43,056 bases of DNA from an uncultured Nitrososphaerota archaeon (GCA_964618805.1 CAZUBM010000019.1:1-43056); one strand, 5' to 3'. Counted from the first letter of the stretch, positions 16,729-29,058 are shown. Notes: a model not told the origin generated them from the letters alone. Numbers and translations: made by a program.

Positions 16729-17487
16729 GTGTGCAGGATGGCTGCAATGATCTCGTCGGAACCCTTGAAAATAAATGCCTTAGTGGGATGGCTGTCTGAC
16801 CTTGCACTCCTTAAGAACCAGTGCGATGGCTGGGGGATATCAGCATATCAACGATCCAACCTCATATTATACTTTAGAGAATCTACTCCCATATGGGAGC
16901 GACCTACCTTACACTTCCCTAAGGCAGACATCGCCATAGTCCATGCAAGAAAGGCTTCGGAGGGATCCATAAGCTTCCTCAACTCACATCCCTTTGCAAG
17001 GCTTTATAGGGGTAGGTTCTGGTCCTTCTGCCACAACGGAAGCCTTAAGAAGGAACTTCTCAAAGTCAAAAGGGGCGAACTCAGCCTTTTGGGCGAAACA
17101 GATAGTGAGCTCCTTTTCCTTTATATATTAGAGGGAATTGAAGGCTCTAACTTGAATAAGCCGGAGGAAACTCTATCTGCTTTAAGCGAGGTTGCTGGAG
17201 AGTTGAAGGATAAGAGAGAAGAGCTTAGGCTTAGTGCAGTTAACTTCCTGCTAACCGACGGATCCTCCTTGTTCGCTTTCAGAGGAGCAAGGTTGAGGGA
17301 GGAATGGTTCACTCTCTGGGTGAGGGATTTTGAGGAGAGGCTTCTTAGAAGGGATGTGAGGGGCTCCATCATTTCGTCGGAACCTATCCCTGAGAAAACC
17401 GATGAATGGACATCCATCCCGAACTGGACCCTTGTAGGAAGATGGTTTGGGCAGAACGCTCTTATGAGGGAAGAGACTAGAGTTTGA
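16729..17487 (+). CDS. Class II (Ntn) glutamine amidotransferase, YafJ/EgtC-like
   Basis: Starting at GTG 16729 puts the catalytic Cys at position 2 (M-CRM). Other motifs: DGWG, HARKAS, NSHPF, FCHNG and GETDSE. Confidence 0.85.
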   Translation: MCRMAAMISSEPLKINALVGWLSDLALLKNQCDGWGISAYQRSNLILYFRESTPIWERPTLHFPKADIAIVHARKASEGSISFLNSHPFARLYRGRFWSFCHNGSLKKELLKVKRGELSLLGETDSELLFLYILEGIEGSNLNKPEETLSALSEVAGELKDKREELRLSAVNFLLTDGSSLFAFRGARLREEWFTLWVRDFEERLLRRDVRGSIISSEPIPEKTDEWTSIPNWTLVGRWFGQNALMREETRV

Positions 17488-17687
17488 GCATAATGTGCAC
17501 CTTCTCTGATTTTAATAATTTTTTATTGTTTGAATTTACTAATTGTTAAAGAATGGCATTGTAAAGACTCAATTTTTAAAATAAGCCAATTTTATAAACG
17601 CCCGAAAACTCACAGGGGTATATATAACACATTAGATTTTTTTATATCAAATTTAGATGATAATTGGTTAAAATCCAAAAATATTTC

Positions 17688-17702
17688 CCAAAAATTTAAA
17701 TA
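17688..17702 (+). promoter_or_regulatory. Probable archaeal BRE/TATA (A-rich stretch + TTTAAATA) for the precursor-peptide operon
   Basis: TTTAAATA at 17695-17702, about 34 nt before ATG 17736, in a very AT-rich intergenic region. Confidence 0.5.
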
Positions 17703-17735
17703 GAAAAAACCTTTCTCTGCACAATATGATGTAAA

Positions 17736-17849
17736 ATGGAAGAATGGGTAGATCCAATCATTATAGGTCAAAATTTTGAAGCAGAATGTGGTAAATGCTA
17801 TGGATGTTTTTGTTGTTTTGTAAGTTATGATGGTGTAAACCCGTATTAA
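17736..17849 (+). CDS. Putative RiPP precursor peptide, 37 aa: MEEWVDPIIIGQNFEAECGKCYGCFCCFVSYDGVNPY
   Basis: Hand-translated, ATG 17736 to TAA 17849. It has an acidic leader with a WxxP motif and a core with 5 Cys (CxxCxxCxCC). It ends 38 bp before the rSAM gene on the same strand. Confidence 0.8.
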   Translation: MEEWVDPIIIGQNFEAECGKCYGCFCCFVSYDGVNPY

Positions 17850-17887
17850 CTAGTCATTTAATCAAATAATCTGATAAATACGACAAA

Positions 17888-19324
17888 ATGAAGGTACTTG
17901 ATTTTTATCCGGTCTTTATGATAAAGAGATTTAGAAAAGAGAACAGTATAATCGATAACAATCTAGTAGTAGCTTCGATAGAGGATTATGCTGGAGGCAT
18001 CCATCACTTAAACAAAACCGCTCTTGAGATCCTCAGCTTATTTGATGGGAAAAATTCGGTTAAAGACGTCTTAAATTACTTAATGGAGAAATACGACGCA
18101 CCTAAGCACAGGCTGCTGGCTGGAATTAGAAGCGTGTTACGAAATGGCATAGAAAAGGGCTTCATAAGCCTCCAAGAGCATATAGAGCCTCCTGTCCCCT
18201 TAGATGATAAGAGGAAGATTCCAAAAGAGCCTTTACACAATTTCCTATACACTCCGAGGGAAGTTCTATTCGAACTCACGTATGCGTGCAACCTTCATTG
18301 CAAGCACTGCTACTCTTCATCAGGCGAGCCAATGCCAGATGAGTTGGATAAGCAGGAGCTAATGCGCTTGGCAGATGAGCTGGGGGAGATGAAGGTGTTC
18401 AGAGTTAGCATAGGAGGAGGAGAGCCATTGCTAAGGATAGAGGAGCTAATATTCTTCGTGAGAGAGCTTAATTCAAGGGGAATAGAGGCAGATCTCGTGA
18501 CAAATGGAGTTCTTTTTAACGAAGAGGTAGCAAGGGCTTTGTGGAAGGCGGGCCTTAGAAGGGTGCAGTTCAGCCTGGATGGAGTTGGAACCCTTCACGA
18601 TGAGATCAGAGGCTTTAAAGGCTGTTTTGATAAGGTAGTAGAGGCCATTAAACTTGCTAAACTTATGGGTTACAAAATCCTTGTGAAATCCGTAGTTCAA
18701 AGGAAAAATCTCCCTCAACTAAAAAGGATTTACGCCCTTGTTAAGGAGTTAGGGGTCTCTTATTGGTCGGTAAATAGGTTTGTTCCATCTGGAAGGGCAA
18801 AGGAATTCTTAGAAGAGATCTATGTAGTTTATGAGAATTATGCTGCTGCAATAAAAAAGATTAAGGATATCGTTTCGAGAGAGGTAGGAGGGCCTCAGGT
18901 AGGGCTTGAGCCTCTGTTGGACGAGATGAAAGCTAGGAAGAAGAAGGCAAGTGAGACCTATGCTGTCTGTATGGCTGGAACGCTATCGCTTCATTTATGT
19001 CCTGATGGAACAGTTCTACCATGCTCTTACTTTCCCAAGGAGTTTTCATGTGGGAACATAAGAGAGCAGAACCTGCACAATATATGGCTTAATTCCAAAT
19101 TGTTGACAAGGTTAAGGACTTTGAAACTATCTGACATAGGAGAACCCTGCACTTCTTGTGGACTGGAGTGCAATGGAAAGTGCAGGGGCAGTGCCGCTGC
19201 TTTCTTCGGTAGGATAACGGCTCCTGATCCAATGTGCCCCATAGTAGAGAGGAGATCAACTGAAATGCCCTATAAAGTCTACTGGACCAAGCCTTGTGCT
19301 CCTTCTCCTGCGGAGGAGATCTAA
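17888..19324 (+). CDS. Radical SAM/SPASM peptide maturase with an N-terminal PqqD/RRE domain
   Basis: N-terminal LNKTALEILSLFDGKNSV..V...L.EKY...I..G.I (PqqD-like). Radical SAM motif CNLHCKHC with GGGEPLL. SPASM C.AG...L.PDG.V.PC...CTSC...C.G.CR...DPMC. Confidence 0.92.
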   Translation: MKVLDFYPVFMIKRFRKENSIIDNNLVVASIEDYAGGIHHLNKTALEILSLFDGKNSVKDVLNYLMEKYDAPKHRLLAGIRSVLRNGIEKGFISLQEHIEPPVPLDDKRKIPKEPLHNFLYTPREVLFELTYACNLHCKHCYSSSGEPMPDELDKQELMRLADELGEMKVFRVSIGGGEPLLRIEELIFFVRELNSRGIEADLVTNGVLFNEEVARALWKAGLRRVQFSLDGVGTLHDEIRGFKGCFDKVVEAIKLAKLMGYKILVKSVVQRKNLPQLKRIYALVKELGVSYWSVNRFVPSGRAKEFLEEIYVVYENYAAAIKKIKDIVSREVGGPQVGLEPLLDEMKARKKKASETYAVCMAGTLSLHLCPDGTVLPCSYFPKEFSCGNIREQNLHNIWLNSKLLTRLRTLKLSDIGEPCTSCGLECNGKCRGSAAAFFGRITAPDPMCPIVERRSTEMPYKVYWTKPCAPSPAEEI

Positions 19325-19618
19325 GTGGGCAAGAAGCTCTTGAAATGCTTGGATGTAGTGTTATCGTATCCTCTTAAGGGAAGCGCTATGAGGATTTACT
19401 TGTCTAGCGGAGAAGTCGTGCCGCTAGACAAGGTTTCGCATAAGATATGGAACCTTTGCCTTGGATTCTTAGGGAAGGAAGAGATAGTAGAGCAGGTATC
19501 CAGGGAGCTTAAAGTATCAGAGGAAACAGTTAGGAATTGTCTAAGAGGTCTTATGAGGAGAGGTCTAATAAAGGAGGTTGAGTTCTATGAAAATCCTGTT
19601 CATTACAAGCAGCTCTAG
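19325..19618 (+). CDS. Standalone PqqD-family RiPP recognition element
   Basis: LDKVSHKIWNLCLG...EEIVEQVSREL.VSEETV..CL..L.RRGLI is the wHTH PqqD pattern. It starts immediately after the rSAM stop. Confidence 0.75.
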   Translation: MGKKLLKCLDVVLSYPLKGSAMRIYLSSGEVVPLDKVSHKIWNLCLGFLGKEEIVEQVSRELKVSEETVRNCLRGLMRRGLIKEVEFYENPVHYKQL

Positions 19619-20711
19619 AACTCCAGATAACTTACATCCCTTTCAGAAATCGCTTTTACATGCTCTAGAGTCGCTTGGGATTAGAGGACCAAGGATAAAC
19701 TTAGTAAACAATCCGTCTTTCGAAGTTAAGCGCAAAAGAGGAGTAATCCCCTTCATGAAGGATAAGTTGTCCTACCTTTCGGCAATCCTTAAGGAAATCG
19801 AAAGCCTCATAAGGGAAGAAGGTGTTGAAATTATCCACTCCTTTGGCACCTATCTGGCTGGACTGTCGGCATGCTTAGCTAGATCTCTTCTGGAGGTGCA
19901 GTACGTAGTCAGCGTGGATGGAGGAAGTCACATACACGATAAGATACCTAGAGCTAGGAACCTAACCAAAGCAATACTGACAAGCGCTGCTCGAATTACA
20001 TCGCCCAGTAAAGCCCTAGCCTCAGAAATCTCAGAATTCTTCGGAATAAATCCGGATAAAATAACTGTGATACCTCCAATTATTGAGCTTGGCAAGGAAA
20101 GGTTGTCGGAGAATGAAGCGGGGGAGAAGGTAAGGGAAAAACACAAAATACCAGAAGACTCTCCACTTATACTTTCCAGCGGAACTTTCTGGTACTCTCA
20201 AGGCCTTCACCTGCTTCTCTTAGGATCTAAAAAGGTGTTGGAACGCTTTCCACACTTCAAGTTTCTCATAATAGGGGATGGTCCTTTATACCACGAGTAC
20301 TTGGCCATGATACATAGACTTAACCTTCAGGAGTCCGTAATCCTTGTTAAGGGAGCGAGCTCGGAGGAACTTTCTTGTTATTACGCTGCTTGCGATTTGT
20401 TCGTTTACGTCCCAGTTTATGAAGATTTCGCCATTCCACTGCTAAGGGCTATGGCTTTTTCTAAGCCTATAATTGCTACTAGAACTGGAAGTATCCCTGA
20501 GATAATATCAGAGGGGAAAAATGGCGTTCTAATTGATCCATATGATATTCCAGCTCTAACAGAATCGATCATTAAGCTCGTCCAAGATGAAGAGCTTAGG
20601 AAGAAGCTGTCCTTAGAAGCTAGAAGAACTGCTGAAAATTTCAACCCTAAGAATGCAGCTAAATCAATGATCAAGGTTTATGAAAGCATCTTAGCAGAAA
20701 GATGGTGGTGA
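19587..20711 (+). CDS. Glycosyltransferase family 4 (GT-B)
   Basis: MKILFI start (GGAGG at 19573-19577), IIGDGP, CDLFV.VP.YEDFAIPLLRAMAFSKPIIATRTG.IPEII.EG.NG. Confidence 0.88.
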   Translation: MKILFITSSSRTPDNLHPFQKSLLHALESLGIRGPRINLVNNPSFEVKRKRGVIPFMKDKLSYLSAILKEIESLIREEGVEIIHSFGTYLAGLSACLARSLLEVQYVVSVDGGSHIHDKIPRARNLTKAILTSAARITSPSKALASEISEFFGINPDKITVIPPIIELGKERLSENEAGEKVREKHKIPEDSPLILSSGTFWYSQGLHLLLLGSKKVLERFPHFKFLIIGDGPLYHEYLAMIHRLNLQESVILVKGASSEELSCYYAACDLFVYVPVYEDFAIPLLRAMAFSKPIIATRTGSIPEIISEGKNGVLIDPYDIPALTESIIKLVQDEELRKKLSLEARRTAENFNPKNAAKSMIKVYESILAERWW

Positions 20712-20714
20712 GGC

Positions 20715-21827
20715 TTGGAAGATCTTGTTGTGGTAAAGGATTTGGTTAAAGAGTACGAATCTTATTCGATAAAAGGAATGGTTCCAATGACTTACTTCGG
20801 CCTATATCCTCTCTTCGCAAAGCTTGGCCTAAAACTAGGGAGCTATGAGAGGACCATAGTCAGGGCCTTAGATGGGATCTCGTTTAGGGCTAAGGAAGGA
20901 AGGATCTTGGGAATACTGGGACCGAATGCATCAGGCAAGACGACCCTACTTAAGATCCTGGCTGGGTTAACTACGCCCACCAGGGGTGAAGCCTATGTAG
21001 CTGGGCTTAACGTGATTGAAGATCACGATAGACTTCCCGAGGTCGAGATGTTTGTCCCTGGGGTTGCCCTAGTCAACTTGTTTGCAAGACCTGACCTTAC
21101 GGTCGTTCAAAATCTGGAGAGGTTTGCGGAGCTAGCCGAGATTAAGAAAGAAAGGGTAGATGAGATCATATCATTGGTAGGGCTAGAGGATGCTTCAAGG
21201 AAAAGGGTTCTTGAGCTTTCTACAGGACAATTGGGTCGTCTTGCAGTAGCCTTTGGTTTACTGCGAGAGGTGAAGGTTTACTTAATGGACGAGCCCTTTG
21301 TGGGCATCTCTCCCGAGGCGAGGGAATCTTTGTTCAGCTTCATCAAGGAGCTGAACCGCGAAAGGGGGGTTACGGTGCTTTATGCAACCCATATACTGGA
21401 GGAAGCTCAAGATTTCTGCCATGAAGTTATAATCCTTCATAAAGGAAGGATTATTGCGAGAGGAGAACCAAGGGAGCTTGTTAAGAGGCTTGGGCTTAAG
21501 GAAAGCGTGGATGTTGAGGTAAAGCTTACTGAAGACCCTGATTCCCTCCTTAAGAAGGTGAGAAAGATAAAGGGCATTGAGGAAGTCTTTGTGACCGAGA
21601 TTTCTTATCAAGAATTCCCTAAGATCTCCTTTACTCTAATAACTCCCGATAGCAGAGGTGTAATCTCCGATCTCGTGGATCTTCTGATCTCAGGAAAAAA
21701 CAAGGTGATTTACATGAGGGTAAGGGAGCCAAGCCTGAGGGATGTGTACATGGCTTTAGTTAAGGAGTGGGAGGAGCCAAAGGCTCTGAAGGTTGAGACC
21801 TGCCTTATAGTAACTCCGCCGAGGTGA
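20715..21827 (+). CDS. ABC exporter ATP-binding subunit
   Basis: Walker A GPNASGKT, signature variant LSTGQ, Walker B YLMDEP, H-loop ATHIL and C-terminal EPSL.DVY. Confidence 0.88.
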   Translation: MEDLVVVKDLVKEYESYSIKGMVPMTYFGLYPLFAKLGLKLGSYERTIVRALDGISFRAKEGRILGILGPNASGKTTLLKILAGLTTPTRGEAYVAGLNVIEDHDRLPEVEMFVPGVALVNLFARPDLTVVQNLERFAELAEIKKERVDEIISLVGLEDASRKRVLELSTGQLGRLAVAFGLLREVKVYLMDEPFVGISPEARESLFSFIKELNRERGVTVLYATHILEEAQDFCHEVIILHKGRIIARGEPRELVKRLGLKESVDVEVKLTEDPDSLLKKVRKIKGIEEVFVTEISYQEFPKISFTLITPDSRGVISDLVDLLISGKNKVIYMRVREPSLRDVYMALVKEWEEPKALKVETCLIVTPPR

Positions 21828-21831
21828 TTGA

Positions 21832-22689
21832 ATGAAGGAGCTTTTTAGGATCCTTAAGATCGTGAGGCACAGGCTGAAGACCTACACGATCAGGATATAC
21901 GTTTGGTGGATAGCATATATACCCAATGAGGTAATAAGCATCGCTCTGGCTCTCTCTTCTTGGTACTACTATACTGTGTTCGTCTCCCCTGAGGAAGCTG
22001 AAGCTTACATCGGAGGATTTCTTTCATATATTATAATAGGACTTATGTTGGCCCCTCTTTTCGAGATGGCGATGAGAAGCCCAGAAGAGGTGATGAGGGG
22101 CCTTTATTGGGGTTACACCTCTCTGGGCGGGTTTAAGATACCTCGGTGGGCTTATTACTACCTAGCCGGGGCTTCTAGGGCAGACGCTTTCGTAGGATCC
22201 CTAATATTCGAGTTTCTAGTCTTTCTTGTAAGGTTAGGGATATACGCTGGGCTTGGCACGGCCATATTCGGCTTACGCTTGAGTCCTGATCCTAATTTGG
22301 GAGCAGCTTTTCTTTTCACGCTCCTGGGATTCTTGGCAAGTCTTGCAATAGGCTTCATGGTGGCGAACACGTTCTGGTTGTTCTTACACTTTAGGGAGGC
22401 TGCGCTGAATCCCTTTGTCTGGTTCCTCACTCTTTTGCCAAACGTGGTGGGAGGTGTTTACTTTCCCATCGAAATCCTCCATCCAGCTCTAAAGGCGATA
22501 GGTCGTTTGCTTCCGCATTACTACGCCTTCGATGGAGTTAGAAAAGCGCTGTTAGCTGGGAACTCGTTGGCTCAATTAAGACATTTGCTTCCTCCTTTGC
22601 TCTTTTACACAACTCTTTTGCTCCCACTAGGTATACTTAGCTTCAAATACTTCGAGAGGTACATGGTGTACAAGGCAAAGAAGATCTAA
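21832..22689 (+). CDS. ABC-2 type exporter permease
   Basis: About 6 TM segments and GGVYFPIE.L...L..I..LLP.YYA.DG.R (ABC-2 C-terminal pattern). Confidence 0.85.
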   Translation: MKELFRILKIVRHRLKTYTIRIYVWWIAYIPNEVISIALALSSWYYYTVFVSPEEAEAYIGGFLSYIIIGLMLAPLFEMAMRSPEEVMRGLYWGYTSLGGFKIPRWAYYYLAGASRADAFVGSLIFEFLVFLVRLGIYAGLGTAIFGLRLSPDPNLGAAFLFTLLGFLASLAIGFMVANTFWLFLHFREAALNPFVWFLTLLPNVVGGVYFPIEILHPALKAIGRLLPHYYAFDGVRKALLAGNSLAQLRHLLPPLLFYTTLLLPLGILSFKYFERYMVYKAKKI

Positions 22690-23086
22690 TAGCAAATGGA
22701 TTTATTAGGTTTAAGTAAAGCTCAAGTTTAGATGCATGAGCAAGAGTTGAAGAAGGAGGTAACAGACCTTCTGGTTAAGGCTGAGGACAAGGGGAAGATC
22801 GGCTCATTCAGCCATGCCTAAAGCAGGAGTCAACGCTTTGACGAAGATGTTTAAAGTCCTGCATAAGCTCAGTCTCTACAAACCACCATCAGTGGGCCAC
22901 GAAGGAAGTAGAAGAGTTCCTCAAAAGGACCGTTGGAGAATATGAAAGCCTGGAAGAAGCTATTTCTGCCCTTGAAGAACTAAGAAGAATGGTGCATGGA
23001 GTTAATGAAAGAATTAGTCAAGATAACCTTGATTACAGGACGAAGATGTTGGTGGAGTGGATGTGATAAAAAGGGTTATGAGTTAG

Positions 23087-23143: not shown

Positions 23144-23767
23144 TCAGCAGATCTCTAGTATCTTTTTACCCTTCAACCTCTCAGGACGATAAAGGGGATG
23201 GGCCAAGCAGAAGTCAACTCCCTCAAGAAGTTTCAATTTATCCCATCTCGGTGGACTTGCTTCTTTTGAGGCGGGCATCCACATTAAATGGATTTTAAAG
23301 CACTCATCCCTGTGCTTCTCCTTATGCTTAACGTTTATGGAATCTATTGACGTGAAGCCAAGCTTTTCTATATGCTCTTTCTTTAACCAAGGACTCCAGT
23401 GATCTTCCAAGGCTATTGTAGCAAACCCCTTTGCATTCTTCTCCCTTTGTATCATGAAATTAAGAAGCATCCTCCCGAAACCATGACCTTTTGCTTTTCT
23501 TAATACCCAAATACAATTCATCACGATTATACCATCTCCAAAGATTGGATAGTAAGAAGCCTCTGCTGGAGCATATTCTATCTGACCAACCACCCCCTTG
23601 TCAAAAATTAGTAGAACTTTGTGAAAACCTTTAGGAACGGCTTGATCCAAGTATGTGCTCCTCTTCCTGTATCTTCTAAAAGGGAGAGGAGCAAGACATC
23701 TGTAAAGGTATTTTTCGTATTCATTGCGTCCAATTATATCGATCAGGTTAATTTTATGGTTTGACAT
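23144..23767 (-). CDS. GNAT-family acetyltransferase (YoaP-like)
   Basis: GQIEYAP.E, MNCIWV..KAKGHGFGRMLL and KLGF. ATG 23767 is taken as the likely start; the ORF track starts at 23821. Confidence 0.7.
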   Translation of the reverse strand: MSNHKINLIDIIGRNEYEKYLYRCLAPLPFRRYRKRSTYLDQAVPKGFHKVLLIFDKGVVGQIEYAPAEASYYPIFGDGIIVMNCIWVLRKAKGHGFGRMLLNFMIQREKNAKGFATIALEDHWSPWLKKEHIEKLGFTSIDSINVKHKEKHRDECFKIHLMWMPASKEASPPRWDKLKLLEGVDFCLAHPLYRPERLKGKKILEIC

Positions 23768-23851
23768 CGTTCGATCATGACATGCTATCCTAAAAGACTT
23801 GCTTCCATGGAATACCAGCATCTTAAAGATGGAAGACTTGCTTATCGTGAA

Positions 23852-24616
23852 CTACTCATATTTCAAGTCCTTCTTAAGTGCTTGTAAGATCCTTTTTGTC
23901 ACTTCCTTGACTAATCTTTCGGCAAACTCCTTTGACGCAAGCCTTGGATCACCTATTCCTCCTGTAGGATATCTCTCATCGAAGTAAGTTAGGATCTTGG
24001 TTGATGGGTAGGCCTTGTCTCTAGGAGGTCCTCTGTACTCCTGCTCTCTCATCTTTTCCTCTCTTACCAACTCAGGCCTAATTAGCATAACCATGCTGGT
24101 TTCATAGAAGCCAGAATGTCCATATGGGATTTCTTTGCCATATTCTTCAATTAGGTCCCTTGCAAACTCAGTCCAGTGAACAAAGTATGTTTTCAGGCCA
24201 AGTTCTCTTTCAATTCTCAGCAATACAAGTTTAATTGCCTGTATATTCCCACCATGAAAGTTCATCACGAGTAAACGCCTGGCTCCATGTTTTTTCAGGC
24301 ATAGGGCTATTTCATAAATCAGGTTCATGTAGGTCTCGTCTTTCAGACTGATGGTCCCTGGAAAGTGAATATGGTGTTCAGAGAGGCCATATTTTAGGGT
24401 TGGAAGAACCACAAATTTTAGATCTTCTGAATTTTCTGCAAGATATTTTGTAAGAAACTCTGCTCTTATGCTATCGGTTGATAGAGGAAGGTGAAGGGAG
24501 TGCTGCTCAATACTTCCGGCTGGTAGAACCACAAAATCGGCTTCTTTAATCGCTTTACCGGCTTCTTCTGAGGTCATCTCCTCAAGAAGAACTTTTCGGT
24601 CCATGAGAGAGACCAT
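23852..24616 (-). CDS. Creatininase/MftE-family amidohydrolase
   Basis: LP.GSIEQH..HLPL.TD, S.HH..FPGTISL, N.HGGN, HSG.YETS and G..GDP..AS.E. Confidence 0.88.
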   Translation of the reverse strand: MVSLMDRKVLLEEMTSEEAGKAIKEADFVVLPAGSIEQHSLHLPLSTDSIRAEFLTKYLAENSEDLKFVVLPTLKYGLSEHHIHFPGTISLKDETYMNLIYEIALCLKKHGARRLLVMNFHGGNIQAIKLVLLRIERELGLKTYFVHWTEFARDLIEEYGKEIPYGHSGFYETSMVMLIRPELVREEKMREQEYRGPPRDKAYPSTKILTYFDERYPTGGIGDPRLASKEFAERLVKEVTKRILQALKKDLKYE

Positions 24617-26213: not shown

Positions 26214-27422
26214 CTAGTAAAGAAGATAGTCCTGTCTTTCCATCTGGAACTCCTCAGAGGAAATCTTCGCTTCATCATAAAGCTCAAACGGGTCAGATCC
26301 TTCTTGAAGGGCTTTCCTAACCTTATCGGTGCCAGCAAGGCAGTCGAAATAGTATCCTCCTTTAGGTCTTCTCATCCACTCAAACTTATCCGGGTTCTCG
26401 CTCATTACCTCACTTAACAAACAAAGAGCTACTAGAAACGGTTTAAAGGTTTCTCTATCTGTTATATGCAATTGAACGCCTCTACACTCCTTTCCAGTGT
26501 ATTTAGAGAAGGTAGGCACAAATCTTGCCTCTCTGAAGAGCACTCCCTCTAGGTCAAGGTCTCTAAGCCTATTGACCAATTCCCTCCCATCTATCCAAGG
26601 AGCTCCTACTATTTCAAATGGTCTAGTTGTTCCTCTTCCTTCGGAAATGTTAGTTCCTTCGAGAAGAACCATTCCAGAGTACACCAAAGCTGTGTCCAAA
26701 GTAGGAATGTTTGGAGACGGCAGGACCCATGGAAGTCCTGTTTGATCAAACCACATACTCCTTTCCCAGCCCTTCATAGTTACAACCCTTAGATCGGCTC
26801 CTATTCCATGCTTTTCGTTGAAGAACAAAGCTAGCTCTCCAATAGTCATTCCATGCCTCATAGCTACAGGTAGCATGCCCACAAATGACCTAAACTTCAT
26901 GTCAAGGACATAGCCCTCAACCTTCAAGCCATTAATTGGGTTTGGCCTATCTAGAACTATGTAAAGCTTGTCAAGCTTTGCTGAGGCTTCCATGCTTAAA
27001 GCCATAGTCCATATATAGGTGTAAACTCTAGTTCCAACGTCCTGAACATCAAATATAAGAGCCTCCACGTCTTCCAAACTCTCTGTTAGAGGAGCTCTGG
27101 CTTCTTTAGCCAGAATCGAGTCTACCACATACTCTGGCCCCTTTGCTTGACCAACTGGCCTATAAAGGCTTTTTATGGGAACACCTGTCTCTTCATCAAA
27201 TTCATCTTCTACATATTCACCCGCCTGCAAAGATCCCCAAAAGCCGTGTTCTGGTGCAAAGATTGCGACTAGATCAACGTTTGCTCTTGAAACCAGCAGG
27301 TCCTTTAAATGAACGAGTTTAGAATTAACTGCCGTATAGTTCGTAATGATACCTACCTTCATGCCCTCAATCAGGTTTATTTCCTTCTGAAAGAAGACCT
27401 CCAGACCTGTCTTAACCTTCAT
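26214..27422 (-). CDS. namZ: Exo-beta-N-acetylmuramidase NamZ (DUF1343/YbbC family)
   Basis: FAPEHGF.G, FDVQDVGTRVYTY, LDRPNPI, RHGMTIGELA, PSPNIP and EGTN.SEGRGTTRPFE..GAP. Confidence 0.9.
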   Translation of the reverse strand: MKVKTGLEVFFQKEINLIEGMKVGIITNYTAVNSKLVHLKDLLVSRANVDLVAIFAPEHGFWGSLQAGEYVEDEFDEETGVPIKSLYRPVGQAKGPEYVVDSILAKEARAPLTESLEDVEALIFDVQDVGTRVYTYIWTMALSMEASAKLDKLYIVLDRPNPINGLKVEGYVLDMKFRSFVGMLPVAMRHGMTIGELALFFNEKHGIGADLRVVTMKGWERSMWFDQTGLPWVLPSPNIPTLDTALVYSGMVLLEGTNISEGRGTTRPFEIVGAPWIDGRELVNRLRDLDLEGVLFREARFVPTFSKYTGKECRGVQLHITDRETFKPFLVALCLLSEVMSENPDKFEWMRRPKGGYYFDCLAGTDKVRKALQEGSDPFELYDEAKISSEEFQMERQDYLLY

Positions 27423-27426
27423 ATCC

Positions 27427-29058
27427 CTAAACCCCCGGGATAATCCCGTGTCCCCTCGGGAACATTCCTTGTATGGAAACAGGAAGTTTTCCTTTTGGCT
27501 TGATTTTTCCTAACAAAACATCAATCAAAGCTTCTTGCATCGGTTCATGATAGTCATATGTTACTAAATGATTTTTAACCTCAGGAAAGGCCAGTATGTC
27601 ATATGGAGTTCCAAGCGAGATTACAATAAGGCATTTGTCCTTCTTATCAACAAGTTCATTTAGCTTTCTCACCAACTTAACCTCCTCGGGATACCTTAGA
27701 GCCTCCCACGTACAAATGATGATAAAATCGGCCTTCAAAACGTGCTTAGTGGATCCTTCCAACACCTCCTCTGCTATCTCCTCTTCAAAAAAGATTTCCT
27801 CAACATCAACTCCCTTAGACGCCATTTTTTCGCCTATGGTTGAGGAACTCTCTCCAGTTTCAGTGAGTTTCTTTATTCTCTTGGGGCACACGACTAATGC
27901 TTTGGATAAACCTTCTCTCACCATTGGAAGACATCTTCCATTCAACTTAACTAGAGTGATCGATTCCTCACATATCCTCTTTTCCAAATCAAAGAATTTT
28001 TCAAAGTTCGGCCTCTCCTTCTTCGCCATAGAAGTTCTCTTCTTCAGATTCATGATCCTTAGGAGGGATTCTGCTATCCTCTCCTTCGAGAGATCCCCCC
28101 TCTTGACAGCCTTTATAACAAAATCGATTGCAGCCATTTGCTCCTCAAAATCCCTGCATATCAGAGCCATGTCTTCCCCGGCCTTTATTGCAAGCAAGCA
28201 TGCTTCAGCCAGCGAGTAACTCTTGCTAACAGCCCCCATAAGTAGATCATCTGACAAAACTGCTCCACGAAAACCAAGCTCTCCCCTCAAAGTTCCTTCT
28301 ATTACCTTTCTTGATAGAGTAGCAGGCATTTCTGGATCTATTCCTGGTACTACGACATGGGAAGGCATTATGGCCTCCACACCCTCATCTATTGCCTCTA
28401 TAAAGGGGAGAAATTCTCTCTCCCAGAGAACATCTAATGGAATGTCTAAGACAGGGAGATCGACATGTGGATCTATCGAAGCGGCCCCTATTCCTGGAAA
28501 ATGCTTGGCGACAGCTATAACCCCCGATTTCCTTAATCCAGCTATCATGGCTCTTCCCATTTTTGATACATAAATTGGATCATCTCCAAAGGACCTGACC
28601 CCTATTGATGGGTTCGTCTTATCAAGTATTATGTCAAGAACAGGGGCCAAGTTTACATTAATCCCAAACCACCTTAGCTGCTCTCCAATAGCCTTGCCTA
28701 CAGAGTAGGCTTTTTTCAGCGAATAAGTTGCTCCTAAAGCCATGTTTCCCGGAAAAACCGCAAATCCTTTCCTTATCCTTGCAACTAGGCCCCCTTCTTG
28801 ATCTATTGAGATTAGAAGAGGCGTTCCGGTCAACCTAATGGAAAGTTCGTTTGCCTCGGATATTAGTTCCCTTAACTGTTCCCCTGAATCTACATTTCTC
28901 GAGAAAATTATTATCCCTCCAGGTTTCAGCTCTTCTAATAGTTCCTTTAGCCCTTCCTCCATCTTCTTTCCATTAAAACCTAGCATAAAGAGCTGACTCA
29001 CTCTGTCCTTTAACGACATCTTCGAAACAGACCTTACTGGATCCCAAATCTCACTCAA
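27427..29058 (-). CDS. nagZ: Beta-N-acetylglucosaminidase NagZ (GH3, two-domain)
   Basis: IDQEGG.V.R, APVLD, RSFG.DP, KHFPG.G....DPH (Asp-His dyad) and SDDL.M nucleophile. Confidence 0.9.
   Translation of the reverse strand: MSEIWDPVRSVSKMSLKDRVSQLFMLGFNGKKMEEGLKELLEELKPGGIIIFSRNVDSGEQLRELISEANELSIRLTGTPLLISIDQEGGLVARIRKGFAVFPGNMALGATYSLKKAYSVGKAIGEQLRWFGINVNLAPVLDIILDKTNPSIGVRSFGDDPIYVSKMGRAMIAGLRKSGVIAVAKHFPGIGAASIDPHVDLPVLDIPLDVLWEREFLPFIEAIDEGVEAIMPSHVVVPGIDPEMPATLSRKVIEGTLRGELGFRGAVLSDDLLMGAVSKSYSLAEACLLAIKAGEDMALICRDFEEQMAAIDFVIKAVKRGDLSKERIAESLLRIMNLKKRTSMAKKERPNFEKFFDLEKRICEESITLVKLNGRCLPMVREGLSKALVVCPKRIKKLTETGESSSTIGEKMASKGVDVEEIFFEEEIAEEVLEGSTKHVLKADFIIICTWEALRYPEEVKLVRKLNELVDKKDKCLIVISLGTPYDILAFPEVKNHLVTYDYHEPMQEALIDVLLGKIKPKGKLPVSIQGMFPRGHGIIPGV

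Follow-up and report, generated by a model that had tools for sequence, protein, structure and literature searches.

A six-gene archaeal cassette predicted to make a radical SAM-modified peptide, with a GT4 glycosyltransferase gene coupled to a second RRE gene

We analysed a 43,056-nucleotide stretch of DNA from an uncultured Nitrososphaerota archaeon (GCA_964618805.1 CAZUBM010000019.1:1-43056, hereafter the window) and report on six plus-strand genes within positions 17736 to 22689 that are predicted to encode a ribosomally synthesized peptide with post-translational modifications (RiPP) and the proteins that act on it. In the open reading frame (ORF) listing of the window these genes are co-directional and tightly packed, with spacings, in order, of 38 nt, 0 nt, an overlap of 41 nt (32 nt from the ATG at 19587), 3 nt and 4 nt. 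An earlier note, made from the sequence alone, had proposed a RiPP cluster of six same-strand genes behind an AT-rich, TATA-containing region of archaeal DNA. All six genes were found exactly where it had placed them, Pfam and NCBIfam scans bore out their identities, and the archaeal origin of the source genome was supported by a 16S fragment scoring 745 bits on the archaeal model after clan competition. The genes, henceforth referred to as the cassette, and a putative promoter element are as follows (RRE, RiPP recognition element; rSAM, radical S-adenosylmethionine; ABC, ATP-binding cassette).

17736..17849, + strand: precursor peptide, 37 aa, 5 Cys (ORF and homologues)
17888..19324, + strand: RRE-fused rSAM/SPASM maturase, 478 aa (Pfam, model)
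19325..19618, + strand: discrete RRE, PqqD family, 97 aa; the GTG start abuts the rSAM stop codon (Pfam, model)
19578..20711, + strand: GT4 glycosyltransferase, GT-B fold, 377 aa (Pfam)
20715..21827, + strand: ABC transporter ATPase, DrrA-like, with a C-terminal extension, 370 aa (Pfam, NCBIfam)
21832..22689, + strand: ABC-2 type membrane permease, 285 aa (Pfam)
17695..17702, + strand: TATA-box-like element TTTAAATA, putative operon promoter (sequence, low-GC intergenic region)

The upstream region is AT-rich as described: its GC content is 0.30-0.32 over 17400-17999, compared with about 0.42-0.48 on the flanks, and 0.24 in the 80 nt upstream of the precursor gene. The TTTAAATA box sits 41 nt before the precursor ATG, and one related locus (L086, see below) has a comparable box, TTTATAAA, at -37. 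We infer that TTTAAATA acts as the operon promoter. A scan for sigma-70 promoters and terminators, which uses a bacterial model although the host is archaeal, found 6 versus 8.2 expected. Rfam and tRNA scans of the window gave no matches.

We retrieved relatives of the cassette with scans based on the rSAM alignment. These yielded three genome loci, recorded as Nitrososphaera sp., Thermofilum sp. and Thaumarchaeota archaeon, and eleven metagenome loci (L082-L092), of which L087 is the same contig as L002. Gene content was established by tblastn of the window proteins against 15 loci and by ORF inspection. Ten distinct loci include DNA upstream of the rSAM gene (the window, L001, L002, L003, L082, L083, L085, L086, L088 and L092). 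In nine of these, a homologous small plus-strand ORF lies directly upstream of the rSAM gene, 4-166 nt from its start.

The window precursor combines a short leader bearing W4-x-x-P7 with a core of C-x2-C-x2-C-x-C-C plus aromatic residues, and its last residue is Tyr. An alignment of eight distinct peptides (A2) shows no variation at W4, P7 and one Cys, and its leader consensus is [K/R/E][K/E/R/N]-W-x-x-P. In the portion of PMC12710340 (2025) that deals with such motifs, W/Y/L-x-x-P/L/I is described as a widespread RRE recognition sequence common to FusE, McjB, PqqD and StsC; the W-x-x-P type is thereby common to the cassette leader and to StsC-type RREs. The cores are hypervariable, with very different lengths and from 3 to 7 Cys. 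Within subfamilies the Cys spacing is fixed while the residues between vary (6/6 Cys in L001 and L088, 3/3 Cys in L002, L082 and L083). The C-terminal residues of the eight peptides are Y, T, V, F, S, C, C and I, with no common C-terminal motif. Nearly every Cys is preceded, 1-3 positions earlier, by an aromatic residue. F-x-C occurs six times in L086 and Y-C three times in L003; Y-G-C, F-S-C, H-E-C and F-Q-C are present in the window, L002, L082 and L083. GGTGA-type ribosome-binding-like sequences precede the precursor ORF in four relatives (L001, L003, L086 and L088).

We searched the six reading frames of the 2.18-Mb genome with a regular expression for the leader motif followed by a Cys-rich tail. 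Of the three matches, one is the precursor ORF and two lie in unrelated frames, so that 17736-17849 is, in our view, the one credible precursor ORF of this type that the genome contains. The window precursor matches no Pfam or NCBIfam family, and an NCBIfam scan of the eight peptides at E up to 10 returned nothing but one unrelated match at E 2.3. A profile of the eight precursors had 0 matches at E up to 0.001 among 1.84 billion representative proteins; either the peptides are absent from called genes or the 43-position profile is too weak.

Gene content downstream of the rSAM gene was compared in the ten distinct loci with enough downstream DNA (the window, L001, L002, which is L087, L003, L082, L083, L084, L086, L088 and L089). 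The GT4 gene is present in all ten. The discrete RRE is present in nine, the search at E up to 1e-3 having failed to detect it in L084; the ABC and ABC-2 genes are also present in nine, the exception being L086. The genes occur in two orders. In the window, L002, L082, L083, L084 and L089 the order is peptide-rSAM-RRE-GT4-ABC-ABC2, and in L001, L003, L088 and probably L090 it is peptide-rSAM-ABC-ABC2-RRE-GT4. Independent loci thus repeat this gene set together with a homologous small ORF, which chance does not account for. The synteny of small ORF, PqqD, GT4 and ABC genes that the earlier note had suggested looking for is therefore conserved, with all six genes co-conserved in related loci. 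The note had also taken the small ORF for a real precursor gene and had held that homologous loci lacking a similar upstream peptide would speak against its reading; since precursor homologues lie upstream of the rSAM gene in nine of the ten loci, the small ORF is borne out and this test does not refute the reading.

We do not count the bacterial locus L004 among the relatives, although its match had appeared to extend over the RRE. It encodes an Ahb/NirJ-like rSAM enzyme behind an HflX-like GTPase gene and has no peptide cassette.

The rSAM protein contains the Pfam domains PqqD (29-93), Radical_SAM (129-266, 1.3e-26) and SPASM (361-424, 7.3e-11). The CX3CX2C motif (C134, C138, C141) and eight SPASM Cys (361, 379, 388, 421, 424, 428, 432 and 450) are invariant in all ten family members, and the SPASM count fits the 7-8 Cys expected for two auxiliary Fe-S clusters. 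Close relatives are few: among 5.8 billion clustered proteins we found only nine, at 41-59% identity, followed by MftC-like proteins at ~33%. The best NCBIfam model is MftC (TIGR03962) at 167.2 bits, below its cut-off of 265. It is followed by NirJ2, AhbD, WgkB (132.5 bits), GeoRSP and PqqE (TIGR02109, 128.5 bits versus a cut-off of 381). Pfam aside, none of the six proteins attains the cut-off of any curated family model (NCBIfam equivalogs). For the rSAM protein, the AlphaFold model (predicted local distance difference test score, pLDDT, 84.2) has PqqE, SkfB and SuiB as its best PDB folds, and the SuiB structural alignments cover the full length, RRE included. The nearest solved structures by sequence are SkfB, PqqE, BlsE, CteB and SuiB. 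The cassette thus has the CX3CX2C motif, the SPASM Cys and the RRE domain of an RRE-dependent rSAM/SPASM RiPP system, beside a precursor gene with a conserved leader and a Cys core. From these features we are highly confident that it encodes such a pathway, with a tailoring enzyme and an exporter.

Sactipeptide and ranthipeptide systems (AlbA, SkfB, CteB/SCIFF, StsB with its discrete RRE StsC, and the archaeal CrpC) likewise have an RRE-rSAM-SPASM enzyme encoded next to a short, Cys-rich precursor, and their clusters include an ABC exporter. The cassette enzyme resembles SkfB and CteB by sequence and fold, and AlbA aligns with it from the RRE through the SPASM domain. Unlike these systems, the cassette has a second, discrete RRE tied to GT4 and has no protease. 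CrpC demonstrates that archaeal SPASM enzymes do install ranthionines, as set out in the relevant section of PMC13692751. It acts on a large protein in methanogens (Methanococcus), unlike the short cassette peptide, and the screen described in that section covered only proteins of at least 100 aa.

Cys-based thioethers are the favoured chemistry, because the Cys positions are fixed and Cys is the only invariant core residue. The aromatic-x-Cys periodicity leaves room for a different product, in which the rSAM enzyme makes aromatic carbon-carbon cross-links (cyclophane/'triceptide'-like or streptide-like) and the Cys form disulfides or bind metal. The carbon-carbon bond formers SuiB and PqqE are among the top structural matches and WgkB scores 132.5 bits, but the thioether formers SkfB and CteB match comparably and the aromatic positions are not invariant as the Cys is. 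We consider carbon-carbon cross-linking improbable.

The discrete RRE matches Pfam PqqD at 28.7 bits (cut-off 23.4). Its model (pLDDT 86.2) has leader-bound TbiB1 as the nearest PDB entry (E 1.7e-4, 26-28% identity), and further structural neighbours are TbtB, a lasso B1 protein, TruD, LynD and PqqD. In both gene orders, the discrete RRE gene lies immediately upstream of the GT4 gene, in 9/9 loci where both could be placed. The RRE stop and GT4 start overlap by 4 nt in six of these, are separated by a 2-nt gap in one and overlap more extensively in two. Because the RRE gene stays before the GT4 gene in both orders, it travels with GT4 and not with the rSAM gene. In the window, the GT4 start is likely the ATG at 19587, which gives the usual MKILF... 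GT4 N-terminus and overlaps the RRE gene. A complex prediction for GT4 (alignment A4) and the discrete RRE (A3) scored 0.08 and 0.05 against a mark of 0.32, which makes no call either way. The pairing resembles lasso peptide B1/B2 logic, in which a discrete RRE hands the leader to a non-rSAM partner, and TbiB1 is the closest match of the discrete RRE model; unlike in lasso systems, a Pfam scan of the six cassette proteins detected no B2 protease or lasso cyclase. RREs fused to PF00535 (GT2) glycosyltransferases are noted in a passage of PMC12710340. The cassette partner, by contrast, is a separately encoded GT4 (PF00534).

The GT4 protein matches Glycos_transf_1 (1.8e-36) and Glyco_transf_4 (6e-13), and its nearest solved relatives are BshA, MshA and Tll1590. 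E305, the conserved Glu of the EX7E region, and H84 are invariant. In place of the usual GRxxxxKG motif, the window has GTFWYSQG and the Thermofilum-type loci have VGD/E-x-WYTSG; L003, L086 and L088 retain the GRL-x3-KG form. In a quick maximum-likelihood tree with 39 nearest database GT4s, eight cassette GT4s form one group with a Shimodaira-Hasegawa approximate likelihood ratio test (SH-aLRT) support of 99, within which the branching mirrors the rSAM identities. The 39 sequences were taken from 83 non-self matches (P0122-P0164, 330-430 aa, without P0141, P0154, P0160 and P0162; P0165-P0204 were not used). The word-based search that gave these matches, made with the window GT4, retrieved no other cassette GT4, the best other match being 29% identical; it missed them because cassette GT4s are only about 30% identical to one another. 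The models TIGR04157 ('glyco_rSAM_CFB') and NF038229 ('GPMC system family 4 glycosyltransferase') score 71.8 and 91.4 bits against the window protein, with cut-offs of 400. That GT4 acts on the peptide is argued for by its co-inheritance with the cassette, the private GT4 clade, the fixed coupling to a second RRE and the leader-binding structural neighbours of that RRE; we put this at roughly even odds.

The ABC ATPase matches Pfam ABC_tran (1.9e-23) and the NCBIfam drrA subfamily (190.5 bits versus a cut-off of 312), and is 45-53% identical in related loci. The permease matches ABC2_membrane_3 (1.3e-10) and ABC2_membrane (2.2e-8) and is 37-48% identical. The ATPase carries an insertion of ~30 residues between its first beta-strand region and Walker A (20715-20860), which is conserved in related cassettes. 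Instead of the transporter genes, the metagenome locus L086 (3945-6510) has a broken ATPase gene on the opposite strand and a DDE transposase gene (DDE_Tnp_1, 86.7 bits) just upstream of a precursor of 60 aa with 7 Cys.

The main rival to peptide glycosylation assigns GT4 and ABC-2 to the cell envelope. The peptide and rSAM enzyme would still make a RiPP, while GT4 and ABC-2 would modify or export an envelope lipid or glycan (e.g. for self-protection) and the discrete RRE would serve the rSAM enzyme, like PqqD with PqqE or MftB with MftC. ABC-2 transporters commonly export glycoconjugates, and the closest characterized matches to the cassette GT4 (BshA, MshA, PimA and proteins named diacylglycerol glucosyltransferase) have small molecules or lipids as substrates. 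Discrete RREs do serve rSAM enzymes in the PQQ (pyrroloquinoline quinone), mycofactocin and StsB/StsC systems, according to the part of PMC12710340 concerned with them. On the other hand, the rSAM enzyme already has a fused RRE, the discrete RRE gene stays with GT4 when the modules permute, and the GT4 clade is cassette-specific. A single glycosyltransferase without polymerase, flippase or sugar-activation genes is also a thin basis for a glycan pathway. We consider this envelope-directed role unlikely, though less so than the other alternatives.

We favour, with moderate confidence, the reading of the cassette as an operon for an RRE-guided, rSAM-cross-linked, probably glycosylated and exported RiPP. 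The chemical steps, transcription and export are those we infer from domain content and gene order. The 37-aa precursor would be translated, as the GGTGA-type sequences before homologous ORFs in four relatives suggest, and its short N-terminal leader would offer the W-x-x-P recognition sequence to the RRE domains. The rSAM-fused RRE would then present the Cys- and aromatic-rich core, and the SAM cluster with two auxiliary clusters would install intramolecular cross-links. These would most likely be Cys-to-carbon thioethers of the sactipeptide or ranthipeptide type, with links between aromatic residues and neighbouring carbons as the alternative. The separate RRE would most likely hand the same leader to GT4 for transfer of a sugar onto a core Ser, Thr, Tyr or Cys. 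Export of the product, or protection of the producer, would fall to the ABC ATPase and the ABC-2 permease.

Several observations weigh against this pathway or parts of it. In L085, the 2.5 kb upstream of the rSAM gene contain nothing resembling a precursor ORF, and L086 has no intact transporter, retaining only a broken ATPase gene on the opposite strand. The nearest curated rSAM model, MftC, does not make thioethers. The cassette contains no protease, which leaves leader removal unexplained. BLASTP of the rSAM-fused RRE domain against the discrete RRE gave no alignment, so the two need not bind the same motif. The window GT4 has T and Q where the GRxxxxKG donor-phosphate motif has its two basic residues, so the donor may be unusual or the activity altered. 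BshA and MshA act on small molecules and not on peptides, and GT4 with ABC-2 is a classic pairing for glycolipid or glycan export.

We next considered the genomic setting. A search for the rSAM gene at E up to 1e-60 came up empty in 42 other genomes from the phylum of the window, among them 4 congeners (71-90% complete) and another 31 members of the same family. As the cassette is not found in these genomes, the three genome loci would belong to another phylum. With 14.5 kb of DNA spanning the cassette as the query, congener G002 gave a match on either side of it. The match ends at ~17450, at the end of a class-II glutamine amidotransferase (GATase) gene, and picks up again at 22769. At the cassette site, 84 nt after the GATase gene, G002 has an intact Peptidase_M20 gene of 455 aa (L163 6081-7448), a trace of which is present in the window.

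22769..22975, + strand: M20 peptidase gene remnant, downstream edge of the inserted segment (DNA match to congener)

Over 28 aa, the window ORF at 22814-22945 shares 82% identity with the G002 M20 peptidase (its residues 230-257). A GNAT-like gene (23144-23821) is also absent from the corresponding G002 stretch. Given the M20 fragment and the GNAT difference, the GATase-creatininase segment is a variable spot in the genus. Congener G003 (75% complete) has a 3.5-kb contig with an ABC-2 gene 89% identical to that of the window and only the last 216 ATPase residues, in a different neighbourhood. This copy looks like a decayed or rearranged cassette, or else reflects an assembly break. The neighbours of the G003 segment (L165, G003:C118, 489-2004) are unrelated genes, an S-layer-like ORF and a further ABC fragment on the opposite strand. 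No homologue of the genes flanking the cassette in the window (amidohydrolase, class-II GATase, GNAT and creatininase-family) was detected in the 15 loci. From these comparisons, the cassette is best described as an accessory, horizontally moving unit that also occurs in a different archaeal phylum.

One neighbouring gene bears on a further alternative, in which the cassette makes a peptide-derived redox cofactor like mycofactocin or PQQ, with an MftC-like rSAM enzyme, an MftB-like RRE and MftF-like decoration. A creatininase-family gene (23852-24616, minus strand), found in the window only, lies 1.16 kb downstream of the cassette. Its protein scores 112.9 bits on creatininase and 103.2 bits on MftE (TIGR03964, cut-off 172), both below cut-off, and 23 bits on the archaeal riboflavin protein ArfB. 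In mycofactocin, too, a short peptide occurs with an RRE, an rSAM/SPASM enzyme and a glycosyltransferase. MftC is the nearest curated rSAM model (167 bits), PqqE (128.5 bits) is the top structural match, and the window peptide ends in Tyr. The mycofactocin precursor has a conserved C-terminal Gly-Val-Tyr, and MftF is a GT2 enzyme. Cofactor precursors have invariant cores, whereas those of the cassette are hypervariable in length, Cys number and C-terminus. In further contrast to mycofactocin, the MftC and PqqE scores are far under their cut-offs of 265 and 381, the transferase is GT4 and not GT2, MftD is absent and the loci conserve a dedicated exporter. The MftE-like gene is on the other strand, below its cut-off and without a homologue in the 15 related loci. 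PQQ biosynthesis would call for a PqqE equivalog and a PqqA-type precursor, whereas here the PqqE model is below cut-off and no NCBIfam precursor model matches the eight peptides beyond the one unrelated match. Nor did the 42 other genomes of the phylum yield the cassette, and partner dehydrogenases are not conserved along with it. We regard a cofactor function as very improbable.

We compared the cassette with the remaining systems in which peptides and glycosyltransferases are combined. Like the product predicted for the cassette, glycocins (SunS/GccA-type S- or O-glycosylated bacteriocins) are Cys-rich exported peptides with a dedicated glycosyltransferase, and the odd Cys count of the window peptide would be compatible with one glycosylated, glycocin-like Cys. 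To our knowledge, glycocin transferases belong to GT2/GT-A and lack an RRE, and no rSAM enzyme accompanies glycocins. In the cassette, the transferase matched only GT4/GT-B families and is coupled to an RRE. Bacterial rSAM and glycosyltransferase systems (TIGR04157, NF038229 and the Bacteroidales clusters BGC3 and BGC9) also combine a GT-B/GT4 enzyme with an rSAM maturase and are known from genome mining only. The contents of the TIGR04157 and NF038229 systems are presumably as their model names indicate. The cassette differs from these systems in lineage, in precursor family and in the RRE-GT4 pairing. Predicted rSAM and glycosyltransferase clusters in Bacteroidales are described in the section of PMC10352776 devoted to them. 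A PADLOC scan for known anti-phage defence systems gave no specific match, with superfamily-level matches only (the rSAM core to pVip, and P-loop ATPase models), with none for the peptide, GT4 or permease. Literature searches returned no description of the cassette family; the supplementary tables of two surveys (PMC12144867, PMC13692751) may list such loci as generic predicted clusters.

The earlier note had not recognized a GT4 enzyme paired with an rSAM enzyme in an archaeon as a described class. Because rSAM- or peptide-named GT4 models exist in NCBIfam and such clusters have been predicted in Bacteroidales, the rSAM-glycosyltransferase combination is not unprecedented as a bioinformatic pattern, and in general it is not new. 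What holds is the narrower part of the claim: the archaeal clade, its precursor family and the discrete RRE coupled to GT4 appear to be undescribed. We also put forward a more ambitious proposal, to which we give somewhat less than even credence. The cassette would be the first example of a new RiPP class, known so far only from Archaea, whose peptides are cross-linked by an rSAM/SPASM enzyme and glycosylated by a GT-B/GT4 enzyme that is aimed by its own translationally coupled RRE. It would include the first RRE-guided GT4 peptide glycosyltransferase and the first case of two unrelated RREs reading one very short W-x-x-P leader, in a self-contained six-gene unit that passes between archaeal phyla in hot habitats and in marine or soil ones.

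If GT4 is RRE-guided, leader-directed modification would extend to the GT-B glycosyltransferase fold and would offer a portable route to peptide glycosylation, possibly from thermophiles. If the pathway is as we propose, it would give a first look at small secreted peptides in archaeal communities, where they may serve in antagonism, in signalling or in the binding of metals. In the account given in the main part of a 2025 survey (PMC12144867), the characterized archaeal RiPPs are few, all of them haloarchaeal lanthipeptides, against thousands of predicted clusters including rSAM types; the rSAM-type predictions are there described as numbering thousands and as still lacking experimental tests. 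As a compact 5-kb set of six genes, conserved across distant archaea and with an unusually short leader, the cassette is a practical target for heterologous reconstitution.

Further observations concern the source and the rest of the window. The three source DNA runs are labelled hydrothermal vent metagenome. The 16S gene (G000 contig C27 57-824, L162) lies at a contig end and appeared as three pieces with short gaps in the genome-wide search; cmscan merges these into one match, and the pieces may reflect small insertions or assembly quality. On the minus strand of the window, at 26214-29058, a homologue of the exo-beta-N-acetylmuramidase NamZ (NamZ_N 265 bits, NamZ_C 178 bits) adjoins a GH3 glycosidase (288 bits). 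NamZ and GH3 enzymes act on bacterial cell-wall sugars, which suggests murein-fragment scavenging by the archaeon.

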